Source: Escherichia phage vB_EcoM_ESCO50. Taken from it: 64,000 bases of DNA. Positions 42,096 to 43,770 of the stretch are shown piece by piece; the first letter of the stretch is position 1, and each line of letters opens with the position of its first letter. A program made the position numbers and the translations under genes. The notes under the pieces are model-generated. The model made no database searches. It was not told where the DNA came from and worked only from the letters and a program-made list of their open reading frames with translations. The stretch is taken from sequence record OM386664.1; one strand, written 5' to 3'.

Positions 42096-42149
42096 GAGCA
42101 GCATAAACCGACGGGTACTCACCAGCATCACTTAAGAGTCTTATAAGAG

Positions 42150-42266
42150 GGTTTTTAAGTGATGTAATGTAAGGCAAGGCAAGGCAAGGTGGGGTGTGGT
42201 CTGGCCAGGTTAGGTTCGGTGATGTCAGGTATGGGTAGTTAGTCTCAGCTACATTAAAATGAGACT
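42150..42266 (+). other. G-rich 5-nt-periodic element A ((CAAGG)4 then NNNGG pentamers) ending in hairpin AGTCTCA-GCTACATTAAAA-TGAGACT plus T-run; candidate structured ncRNA or DNA element
   Basis: Pentamer periodicity and terminal hairpin read from sequence; no ORF. Confidence 0.5.
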
Positions 42267-42289
42267 TACCTTTTTAAAAGGTCTTTAAG

Positions 42290-42412
42290 AGGGTTTTTTA
42301 ATGAGGTAGGGTAAAGTAATGCTTGGTCTGGTTTGGTAAGGCGCGGTCTGGTTTGGTAAGGTAAGGTTCGGTATGGTGTGGGTGGATGGTAGTAGCCACA
42401 TTAAAAATCTAC
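42290..42412 (+). other. G-rich 5-nt-periodic element B (GGTNN pentamers) ending in hairpin GGTAG-TAGCCACATTAAAAATC-TACC
   Basis: Second copy; same leader AAAAGGTCTTTAAGAGGGTTTTTTA, same loop, different stem. Confidence 0.5.
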
Positions 42413-42489
42413 CAAGTTTCTAAAGAGTCTTCTGTTGAGGGTTCTTTACAAACAACTTAACAATAAACTAAAGTGTGGAGCTAAATGCT

Positions 42490-43077
42490 ATGAAACTGCT
42501 AAATGTCAGAATCACTGGTACTCGTCCTTTCTTGAGCCATAATGATACGCTGTCAGACCCATTAAACCCTCTGACAAAATATCACAAGGCTCTGTCCAGT
42601 AAACGTAAAAAGACTGACGAAGACTATGCGCTCTTAGCAGAAAGTCAACTGGTAACTTCTTGTTACTACGACGAGCAGCTAGGTTTTGTTATGAACGGTG
42701 AGATGATTGAGGCTTGTATCAAGTCTGGTGCAAAACTCAACAAACTTGGTAAGGTAATTGACAGAGCCATTATGCTGACAGATGTAGTCTTCCCAATGAC
42801 TATCAAGAACTGCCCAGCAAACCCACAAGAACTTGCTAAGAATCCAGACTTCATCTATGCGAAGTCTGTCAAGATTGGCACAGCACGAGTTATGAGCTAC
42901 CGTCCAATCTTCCGTGACTGGTCTGTAGAGTTCGGTTTGATGTTCGATGAAGAGCAAATCTCCAAAGAAGAACTTTTGATGGTTTTGGAAAATGCTGGCA
43001 ACCTTTGTGGTGTAGGTGATTGGCGTCCACGCTTTGGTCGTTTTTCTGTAGAAGTTATTTCAGAAGGTAACGTTTGA
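42490..43077 (+). CDS. Hypothetical protein (track ORF starts at a GTG at 42475; ATG at 42490 preferred)
   Basis: GGAG RBS ~9 nt upstream of ATG 42490. Confidence 0.5.
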
Positions 43078-43520
43078 TTATGAATACAAAAGCATTAGCA
43101 GCCAAGTTTAGTTACGGTGACACTGTATCACACTCTGAGATGGACACCTTCTTAGGTATTGTTAAGCCAACTTATCAAGGTGACATTGTTAAGTACGAAG
43201 ATGAGATGAAGGCTTATGCGCTTACACGTCTAAACCGACTTGAGAAGTTTATTGAAAAGCTTCTTAAAGAAGAGAAGATTTATCTGGTTGCTTCAATGGG
43301 TGTTGGTTATCGTGTGGTTGAACCTAAGCATCAAGCAACTATTGCAAAACGCAAAATGTCTGGTAAGATTGGTCGTGCTTTAAAACAAGCCACTCAAGCA
43401 ATTGAGAATGTGAACACTATGGCACTTAGTCATCAAGAACGTTCACGACTGATTGAACAGCAAAACCATTTAGCTGCTATGAAAGCTAACATTAACAAGC
43501 AACGCAGAAAACCTTTCTAA
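43074..43520 (+). CDS. Hypothetical protein (148 aa)
   Basis: ORF with ATGA-type overlap to upstream gene. Confidence 0.5.
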
Positions 43521-43531
43521 GTTGACTAGGT

Positions 43532-43555
43532 AGCCTCTTCGGAGGCTCCTTTTTA
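43532..43555 (+). terminator. Rho-independent terminator AGCCUC-UUCG-GAGGCU followed by UUUUU
   Basis: Tetraloop hairpin plus U-tract after stop of gene 43074-43520. Confidence 0.6.
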
Positions 43556-43574
43556 AAAGGTCTTTAAACAGGGT

Positions 43575-43679
43575 CTTTTAGTAAGGCATGGCTAGGTGAG
43601 GTCTGGTAGGGTAGGGTGAGGTGGGGTTGGGTTGGGTTTGGTATGGAAGGATGGCAGTAGCCTTATAAAAAATCTGCCA
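43575..43679 (+). other. G-rich 5-nt-periodic element C (includes GGGGTTGGGTTGGGTTTGG) ending in hairpin GGCAG-TAGCCTTATAAAAAATC-TGCC
   Basis: Third copy; conserved leader and loop, compensatory stem. Confidence 0.5.
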
Positions 43680-43770
43680 AATAAGCTATAAAATCTGTTG
43701 ACAAGTCAGGTGTTATAGCTTATTTTTATACTCAACGTAATACAAAATTTAATATAACTTTGAGGTCATT

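Follow-up and report, generated by a model that had tools for sequence, protein, structure and literature searches.

What are the three short, G-rich elements on the plus strand of Escherichia phage vB_EcoM_ESCO50 (sequence record OM386664.1), and what might they do for the phage? Our analysis of a 64,000-nt stretch of this DNA, referred to here as the window, indicates with a probability of about 95% that they are the vrRNA genes of a SUSP1-clade type II VIPR locus in a Felix O1-like phage, encoding guides for gapped DNA silencing. This explanation of the elements is already known, as the system was described in 2026 in SUSP1, a near-identical phage. VIPR (Viral Interference Programmable Repeat) is an RNA-guided mode of DNA silencing directed at rival mobile elements; the SUSP1 vrRNAs are RNAs of about 100 nt, they co-purify with Vipr, DNA that matches them is transcriptionally repressed, and reprogramming their NN bases alters which DNA is silenced (bioRxiv 10.64898/2026.04.26.720920, 10.64898/2026.04.26.720927; both preprints). 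The SUSP1 evidence comprises sRNA-seq, Vipr pull-down, GFP repression, lambda defence and cryo-EM (10.64898/2026.04.26.720920, 10.64898/2026.04.26.720927).

The elements were first picked out in an earlier note on this DNA by a 5-nt periodicity, and all three are present where that note had placed them. The periodicity does exceed that of shuffled sequence: the three tracts hold 12, 14 and 13 in-phase GG dinucleotides (A, B and C, respectively) against maxima of 8, 8 and 9 among 1000 dinucleotide-preserving shuffles of each, so that 0 of 1000 shuffles per tract reached the observed phasing. When all 64 kb were scanned for in-phase GG at period 5, these were the only three places to score at least 7 of 12, with scores of 11-12, and the minus strand had zero such places. 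The repeat unit is YNNGG, equivalently GGY-NN, and the tracts read as follows:

42170..42234, plus strand: vrRNA A repeat tract, 13 YNNGG units, with 1-2 degenerate units upstream; NN code AA AA AA AA GG GT CT CA TA TC GA CA AT
42302..42381, plus strand: vrRNA B repeat tract, 16 units (units 1-4 partly degenerate) that include a 20-nt internal duplication; NN code GA AG AA AA TT CT TT AA GC CT TT AA AA TC AT GT
43582..43646, plus strand: vrRNA C repeat tract, 13 YNNGG units; NN code AA AT TA GA CT AG AG GA GG TG TG TT AT

The unit counts of 13, 16 and 13 fall inside the published vrRNA range of 9-16. It had been claimed that no open reading frame spans the elements, which holds for the plus strand; on the minus strand, copy B shares sequence with two mechanical ORFs, 33-38 aa long. 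Rfam at the gathering score gave 0 matches across the whole window and nothing relevant in related VIPR loci.

The elements flank two genes, with products of 195 and 146 aa. The earlier note drew no link between the elements and these genes, and that link is the key to the locus. The genes and the signals around them are:

42068..42095, plus strand: sigma-70-like promoter, 11/12 consensus
42490..43077, plus strand: vipr, encoding a 195-aa RAMP (Cas7-like) protein, with GGY binding predicted from near-identity to SUSP1 Vipr
43080..43520, plus strand: vap, a 146-aa accessory gene, the SUSP1 vap1 counterpart by identity and position
43532..43554, plus strand: intrinsic terminator 3' of vap, AGCCTC-TTCG-GAGGCT followed by a T-run

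The 195-aa product is identical to phiSUSP1 Vipr at 187 of 195 residues (95.9%), and it matches PDB 36pp, 'SUSP1 Vipr protein', both with a family profile (E = 9e-82) and in a single-sequence phmmer search (E = 2e-126). Its AlphaFold model (pLDDT 93) has Csm3/Cas7 subunits as best Foldseek matches, with a TM of about 0.5 and a probability of 1.0 against Csm3. Vipr proteins are minimal RAMPs with an RRM core, a G-loop and a thumb. In the cryo-EM preprint, the holding of G1, G2 and Y3 and the clamping of the DNA are assigned to H17, D177, R138, W178, R179, K33, R39 and K82; all eight are found at the same positions in the ESCO50 protein, the C-terminal G-loop is present, and position 175 is V as in the SUSP1 chain.

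The vap product is identical at 145 of 146 residues to that of the phiSUSP1 ORF directly 3' of vipr, the vap1 position. It belongs to no Pfam family, and BLASTP found no similarity between it and the product of the second gene of one distant VIPR locus. A single-sequence model reached a pLDDT of 68 and gave non-significant winged-helix-like Foldseek matches (best E = 0.2); the model is weak as there was no alignment to build on, a word-indexed search having returned just 3 homologous proteins.

The order of the locus is promoter, vrRNA A, vrRNA B, vipr, vap, terminator, vrRNA C. The promoter, TTGACA-16-TATACT as claimed, is also annotated at the same site in GenBank relatives, and it is predicted to drive vipr and vap together with vrRNAs A and B. 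For vrRNA C, which lies downstream of the terminator, no obvious separate promoter was found. In phiSUSP1 (locus L019 among the relatives) the VIPR locus adjoins a DNA ligase gene, as it does here. The association of arrays with vipr extends further: in five of six loci with Vipr homologues of 37-41% identity, GGY-period-5 arrays flank the homologue's gene on the same strand, these five amounting to four distinct loci as the scans of L025 and L026 are identical, and the array-bearing loci differ in GC content; the sixth (L022) has no such array. In the four GenBank records inspected, the roughly 450 nt of intergenic DNA are unannotated, or marked as promoter or 'repeat_region' only. Several other GenBank records also list promoter or 'repeat_region' features here.

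Downstream of each repeat tract the note had described a hairpin with compensating stem changes and a conserved loop. The compensating changes are real, but part of the loop is itself paired, with four bases joined to the 4 nt immediately 5' of the stem in an H-type pseudoknot of 32 nt:

42235..42266, plus strand: vrRNA A 3' tail pseudoknot, S1 GTAG/CTAC, S2 AGTCTCA/TGAGACT
42382..42413, plus strand: vrRNA B 3' tail pseudoknot, S1 GTGG/CCAC, S2 GGTAG/CTACC
43647..43678, plus strand: vrRNA C 3' tail pseudoknot, S1 AAGG/CCTT, S2 GGCAG/CTGCC

In the comparison of tails, 90.9% of cells are paired, against 28-42% in slid controls, and 9 of the 11 pairs show changes on both sides, though with just four or five tail classes these represent few independent events. 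The T-run 3' of copy A lies at 42271-42275, as described.

The conserved leader upstream of each tract is likewise conserved as claimed and is in fact a hairpin, with 12-15 bp and several invariant G·U pairs. A fourth copy, in a register shifted by one column in the hairpin alignment, stands without a repeat tract directly 5' of vipr:

42128..42162, plus strand: 5' hairpin of unit A, with G·U pairs in its 15-bp stem, from the MFE fold
42274..42301, plus strand: 5' hairpin of unit B, from folding and variant comparison
43553..43581, plus strand: 5' hairpin of unit C, from folding and variant comparison
42421..42448, plus strand: fourth G·U hairpin copy, read from the sequence

Across 24 variants, 91.9% of cells in the 5' hairpin are paired and 5 pairs carry compensatory changes. 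Given its G·U pairs, the structure is specific to the plus-strand RNA. Every phage vrRNA has this hairpin upstream, whereas the satellites' own vrRNA genes are without it. At the other end of the tract, the last YNNGG unit of related vrRNAs is almost always TATGG and takes no part in target pairing. We found no description of the G·U hairpin or the non-pairing terminal TATGG in the searchable texts of the VIPR preprints. As a tentative proposal, the hairpin might be a processing or boundary signal that releases guides from a polycistronic transcript, and the last TATGG unit a handle and not part of the guide. VIPR types other than II have hammerhead ribozymes between their vrRNAs; the G·U hairpin would be the type II counterpart.

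The reading of the tracts as guides is supported by what varies and what it matches. The window and 21 related loci, 22 sources in all, yield 81 tracts, of which 63 are unique, and the NN strings vary even among near-identical phages. In the 63 unique tracts position 1 of the unit is a pyrimidine in 100% of units, with G4 at 86% and G5 at 99%, and the NN positions are nearly random (information of 0.09-0.12 bits). The element they match is a satellite of 10-12 kb integrated in E. coli chromosomes, with a baseplate protein 68% and a tape measure 30% identical to proteins encoded in the window. When guide and DNA are aligned so that one target base is skipped after every NN pair, 39 of 58 related guides reach an NN match of at least 80% in 12 satellite loci; with skips of 0, 2 or 3 nt, 0 of 58 do so. 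Hypervariable NN bases together with satellite matches under the 1-nt skip are consistent with a guide and not with a sponge, a G-quadruplex, a set of primase sites or a rut site. Orphan vrRNAs occur in satellites as well.

For the guides of ESCO50 itself, targets were sought in a sample of 17 satellite copies. Guide A matches at 23 of 26 NN positions under the 1-nt skip, or 23 of 24 without the last unit, including a perfect run of 11 units, in each of two independent E. coli strains, and none of 200 shuffles of the unit order does as well. The site, found in FORC_043 and UID2309220015, lies towards the 5' end of the gene for the satellite's Dam-type methyltransferase. The target reads AAxAAxAAxAAxGGxGTxCTxCAxTAxTCxGAxCC, guide A matches 11 consecutive codons in it, and the skipped bases are the wobble positions of ...SDYWRTPFLL.... 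Guide B has a perfect 8-unit run at a conserved intergenic site of the satellite, matched by 1 of 200 shuffles (core) or 0 of 200 (full guide), with a total score at chance level; we regard this site as a tentative target. Guide C found no target among the 17 copies, and its 9-NN core, searched in one genome per species, gave 4 matches, a chance level, in unrelated Bacillota, Mesoplasma and Legionellaceae. No exact match to a 10-NN core of any of the three guides turned up in IMG/VR, and within the 64-kb window (of a genome of about 86 kb) none of the three guides matches the phage's own DNA at up to 3 mismatches.

The mechanism was demonstrated for SUSP1 in the preprints and is carried over here by near-identity. 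Vipr would coat each vrRNA of about 100 nt with one protomer per YNNGG repeat, each pair of neighbouring protomers flipping out and holding G, G and Y and leaving the two N bases exposed, and the 3' pseudoknot would cap the filament. On a DNA strand, the exposed NN would then pair with two bases in every three and pass over the other (the '1-nt skip'), and an R-loop triplex extending from the 3' end of the guide would block transcription. Expression, processing and Vipr binding of the vrRNAs are expected in ESCO50 from the 96% identity to SUSP1. The role of VIPR in this phage is likely the silencing of its parasite, the satellite, during infection.

Several other functions had been suggested for the elements. 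The suggestion of discrete, structured small RNAs was probably right, transcription here being presumed from the near-identity to SUSP1. A sponge or decoy would be such an RNA as well: its GGY motifs would titrate an oligomeric host or phage RNA-binding protein without guiding it, and CsrB is a sponge RNA of this kind for CsrA. In view of the periodicity, the reader of the RNA is certainly an oligomer whose footprint is 5 nt, and guides B and C are without a convincing target. However, for a sponge the conserved GGY would suffice, which leaves both the NN differences among near-identical phages and the 39 of 58 satellite matches found solely under the 1-nt skip unexplained, and the bound protein is a Cas7-like RAMP whose use of RNA guides was demonstrated in SUSP1. 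We therefore consider a sponge very improbable. What survives of the titration proposal is that the 5-nt period reflects a protein reading the RNA; the RNA is that protein's specificity subunit and not its decoy.

The other proposed roles, in a G-quadruplex, as primase sites or in antisense Rho loading, are not the function of elements that are Vipr guides. Strings of two-tier G-quadruplexes formed by (GGNNN)n in DNA or RNA could affect replication, pausing or RNA stability, for example; a GG spaced at 5 nt, with loops of 3 nt, is what the canonical two-quartet pattern looks like, and the naked RNA might fold in this way before Vipr binds. Such a structure needs no pyrimidine after GG, yet every unit has one, nor does it require a covarying pseudoknot and hairpin on its flanks. 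The cryo-EM structures show protein holding the guanines singly, and the MFE of the tracts, from a tool that does not model G-quadruplexes, is no better than that of shuffles (z = -0.3 for B and +0.2 for C). A G-quadruplex function thus seems highly doubtful.

Signals at the DNA level are the least probable of these roles, and barely credible: some units read TGGTC or GGGTC like T7-type primase sites, but C follows GGY's GGT form in a minority of units and the first N after GGY is nearly random (0.09 bits); a C-rich, G-poor minus strand could load Rho on an antisense transcript against convergent transcription, but the conserved G·U pairs of the 5' hairpin become A·C mismatches on that strand and all annotated genes around the locus in relatives' records are on the plus strand; and for either signal, arrays accompany vipr in most distant loci despite differing GC content. 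A TRAP-type attenuation RNA was rejected as the repeated triplet is GGY and not (G/U)AG, and no TRAP domain (PF02081) was found by Pfam scan in the seven ORFs at 40960-45018. An anti-Shine-Dalgarno sponge, an R-loop origin by analogy with the pentamers of immunoglobulin switch regions, Chi-like or primase sites, and a helical coat-protein assembly signal were all dropped after the neighbouring protein matched PDB 36pp; Shine-Dalgarno mimicry is also disfavoured by the near-random NN composition. Literature searches on repeats and ncRNA in Felixounavirus yielded nothing specific to the elements, and this locus is not covered in the PhageMaP paper on Bas63.

As a way of recognising DNA by RNA guidance, VIPR is newly described, with a gapped code and a minimal Cas7-like reader, and has been proposed as an ancestor of CRISPR effectors. 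Its signature can be recognised by eye in raw sequence, as GGY-NN pentamers and a pseudoknot beside a RAMP of about 190 aa. Practical value for ESCO50 is modest: a function is assigned to about 450 nt of intergenic DNA and two 'hypothetical' genes, and guide A is predicted to silence the Dam methyltransferase gene of the chromosomal satellite in strains such as FORC_043. Guide repertoires may also help to explain why Felix O1-like therapeutic phages differ in host range or fitness on satellite-bearing E. coli.

The closest known system is the type II VIPR of SUSP1, which shares with ESCO50 Vipr, vap, the DNA ligase neighbour, YNNGG repeats followed by a pseudoknot tail, and the type of satellite targeted, with its tape-measure and baseplate homologues. 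The guide (NN) sequences of SUSP1 are not those of ESCO50, its reported order is one vrRNA upstream and three downstream whereas ESCO50 has two upstream and one downstream, and the host phage here is a Felixounavirus, not SUSP1 itself. TRAP on the Bacillus trp leader (11 GAG/UAG triplets with 2-3-nt spacers) is also an oligomer with one subunit per triplet repeat of about 5 nt, but it is a closed ring of another fold and its spacers carry no information, while in vrRNA the spacers are the information. Vibrio phage ICP1 encodes a complete type I-F CRISPR-Cas system aimed at the PLE satellite, which degrades its target and acquires spacers. Both are RNA-guided systems of lytic phages against a parasitic chromosomal satellite, with fast guide turnover among relatives; VIPR, by comparison, consists of one small protein, has no known acquisition machinery and silences without cutting. 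With the class 1 CRISPR effectors (Cas7/Csm3 on crRNA) VIPR shares the RAMP fold, a fixed RNA step for each protomer, a thumb that flips out bases at regular intervals, and a variable guide with a conserved handle as cap, and it is without a CRISPR array, Cas1/Cas2 or a PAM. The crRNA is read in 6-nt steps, with five contiguous pairing bases and one flipped, whereas VIPR takes 5-nt steps in which three bases are hidden and two pair; one target base in three is skipped, and the guide repeats themselves are the scaffold.

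The window phage is a Felix O1-like myovirus (Felixounavirus), with 94-96% identity to ESCO56 and AYO145A across the locus region. Its DNA ligase gene is separated from the genes that follow by a region with three plus-strand elements (A, B and C) of a common plan, which from 5' to 3' consists of a hairpin, a pentamer run and a structured tail. The two genes they bracket belong to phrog_4652 and phrog_5926, previously without an assigned function, and neither has a Pfam family. In public records (MN850647, MN850635, KR014248 and others) the element regions are bare or carry only promoters or short 'repeat_region' features, and both genes are annotated as hypothetical proteins in the records inspected.

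Features of the locus
42128-42162, plus strand: 5' hairpin of A, abutting the first vrRNA repeat
42170-42234, plus strand: tract A, 13 YNNGG units, the last at 42230-42234
42274-42301, plus strand: 5' hairpin of B, abutting the first vrRNA repeat
42302-42381, plus strand: tract B, 16 YNNGG units, the last at 42377-42381
42421-42448, plus strand: fourth hairpin copy without a G tract, directly before the vipr start
42490-43077, plus strand: vipr (195 aa)
43080-43520, plus strand: vap (146 aa)
43553-43581, plus strand: 5' hairpin of C, abutting the first vrRNA repeat
43582-43646, plus strand: tract C, 13 YNNGG units, the last at 43642-43646

The earlier note's observation of three G-rich elements with a 5-nt period was correct, as a scan of the whole 64 kb for period-5 in-phase GG isolates exactly three sites, tracts A, B and C (scores 11-12/12), with none on the minus strand of the window, and the phased GG counts of 12, 14 and 13 lie far above chance, beyond the best of 8-9 found in 1000 dinucleotide-preserving shuffles per tract. 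The window together with 21 related loci (22 sources) gave 81 tracts, 63 of them unique. In the unique tracts position 1 of the unit is always a pyrimidine (T in 89%) and G occupies positions 4 and 5 in 86% and 99% of units; the middle NN positions hold only 0.09 and 0.12 bits. Among close relatives the flanking genes are about 94% identical but the tract sequences quite different, and element number varies, with 0-3 detected upstream of the gene pair and 1-3 downstream. Tract B begins with four degenerate units (TAAAG, TAATG) and contains an internal 20-nt duplication (GGTCTGGTTTGGTAAGG twice, 42321-42372); its NN string is near-identical in several relatives (tootiki, AYO145A), unlike those at the A and C positions.

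Attention was drawn to the 195-aa protein by metagenomic loci of very different GC that encode homologs at 37-41% identity and mostly carry same-strand GGY arrays (GGC or GGT) with period 5 around the gene; such arrays were present in five of the six distant loci fetched, four of the five being distinct. The family profile matched one solved structure, PDB 36pp, 'SUSP1 Vipr protein' (E = 9e-82; E = 2e-126 with the single sequence). One comparison locus is phage phiSUSP1 itself, whose Vipr is identical to the window protein at 187 of 195 residues and whose neighboring product, in the vap1 position, matches the 146-aa protein at 145 of 146.

VIPR (Viral Interference Programmable Repeat) uses Vipr, a minimal RAMP related to Cas5/6/7, with a vrRNA of about 100 nt that comprises 9-16 YNNGG repeats and an invariant 3' tail, a pseudoknot in the SUSP1 clade (bioRxiv 10.64898/2026.04.26.720920 and 10.64898/2026.04.26.720927). 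By cryo-EM each repeat takes one Vipr protomer, in which H17, D177, R138, W178 and R179 hold the flipped-out G1, G2 and Y3 (10.64898/2026.04.26.720920, 10.64898/2026.04.26.720927). All contact residues named there are found in the window Vipr, and its AlphaFold model (pLDDT 93) has Csm3/Cas7 subunits as best structural matches. Therefore, the three elements are vrRNA genes and the locus is a member of the SUSP1 VIPR clade. By analogy with SUSP1, the vrRNAs would be expressed, processed and loaded onto Vipr in this phage; vrRNA C, downstream of an intrinsic terminator, has no clear promoter of its own. SUSP1 vap1 enhances protection (10.64898/2026.04.26.720920, 10.64898/2026.04.26.720927); a DNA-binding fold for the window vap product could not be confirmed from its weak structure model. 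Some 0.65 kb past the downstream end of the locus, at 44331-44657, is a small gene for an HTH_3 (Cro/CI-type) regulator.

In the distant VIPR loci, GGC- or GGT-type arrays stand before, between and after both genes, extend as far as the ribosome-binding sites and mostly terminate in GG(T)6. In one (L024) a roughly 45-nt spacer, ATGGTTAGGCCATTGCGGGCGAATAGGTCGCTGTGGTCTTT, is repeated inside two arrays. Rfam detected no ribozyme in these four loci.

Distant VIPR loci (Vipr 37-41% identical)
L024, 1927-3523
L027, 1866-3333
L023, 1903-3224
L025, 2590-3030

Both ends of the elements are structured. The conserved leader reported in the earlier note is indeed shared and folds as a 12-15-bp hairpin with several G·U pairs in its stem; in an alignment of 24 variants taken from related phages, 91.9% of cells are paired, with both-side changes at five pairs. 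G·U or U·G pairs are almost invariant at three positions, so the hairpin forms in plus-strand RNA only. It may direct processing or mark a boundary, and the searchable portion of the preprint text makes no mention of it. As for the 3' hairpin, its compensating stem changes held up, but its conserved loop is not wholly unpaired: four of the 'loop' bases form pairs with the 4 nt that directly precede the stem (A, GTAG/CTAC; B, GTGG/CCAC; C, AAGG/CCTT), making a 32-nt H-type pseudoknot. Among 16 distinct tails 90.9% of cells are paired, with both-side changes in 9 of 11 pairs, and sliding the partners by 1-3 columns reduces pairing to 28-42%; the tails fall into only four or five classes and so hold few independent substitutions, the pattern being clean nonetheless.

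SUSP1-clade guides, the NN strings of the tracts, have as their common target a satellite phage found in E. coli genomes, and satellite-encoded vrRNAs have been noted (10.64898/2026.04.26.720920, 10.64898/2026.04.26.720927). When 5,426 complete E. coli genomes were searched with the locus by BLAST, 48 chromosomes showed vrRNA-like matches about 90 nt long, none of them in annotated DNA. These lie within an element of 10-12 kb, integrated at wrbA/ymdF, tonB/yciI, yecD/yecN or dinB, which encodes a recombinase, baseplate protein, tape measure and HNH endonuclease and, in many cases, a Dam-type methyltransferase. Its baseplate and tape-measure proteins are 68% and 30% identical to those encoded on the minus strand of the window (56484-57248 and 57944-59512), homology that fits a satellite exploiting the tail assembly of this phage.

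Five of 17 sampled satellites have one vrRNA gene, equipped with a sigma-70-like promoter of its own, a different leader without the G·U hairpin, a B-type pseudoknot tail and an intrinsic terminator. By tblastn these five have no vipr or vap; presumably they borrow the Vipr of a helper phage. Guides of two of the five match other satellites at 88-89%. The guide in L032 also matches 21-22 of 26 NN bases in REP-like chromosomal sequence, GCCTGATAAGC.TAGCGCATCAGGC (L032 19829-19866 and homologous sites in L030, L036 and L037), which may reflect coincidence or the targeting of a repeat element.

Satellite vrRNA genes in E. coli chromosomal loci
L028, 14997-15110
L029, 12455-12550
L032, 13963-14075
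L033, 13994-14105
L048, 11984-12100

The N bases pair with DNA, skipping every third target base, and R-loop triplex growth starts at the pseudoknot end; transcription is repressed by the complex, which can be reprogrammed via the NN bases (10.64898/2026.04.26.720920, 10.64898/2026.04.26.720927). When 58 related guides were turned into gapped NN patterns and scanned on 12 satellite copies, 39 reached at least 80% NN match with a 1-nt skip and none did with 0-, 2- or 3-nt skips, so the published rule is reproduced with independent data. Guide A matches 23 of 26 NN bases (23 of 24 without the last unit), with 11 perfect units in a row, at a site close to the 5' end of the Dam gene carried by the satellites of strains UID2309220015 and FORC_043; none of 200 unit-order shuffles exceeded 20, and the skipped bases are the wobble positions of the SDYWRTPFLL codons. 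Guide B matches perfectly over only 8 consecutive units, at an intergenic site that 9 of 17 satellites share and that is close to sites matched by guides of three other phages. This target is tentative because the overall score does not exceed chance and 1 of 200 shuffles equalled the run. For guide C no target emerged from the 17 satellites, from IMG/VR (exact 10-NN core) or from one genome per species, and no guide matched within the window at up to 3 mismatches. In the 39 guide-target pairs most units match in over 80%, the exceptions being the 5'-most units of long guides, the penultimate (24/39) and the last (6/39). The last is nearly always TATGG across guides, and looks like part of the handle and not of the guide.

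The feature is thus real and remarkable, and is already explained by the April-June 2026 preprints on a near-identical locus; beyond them, a modest interest remains in the 5' hairpin, the terminal unit that does not pair and the guide A target.
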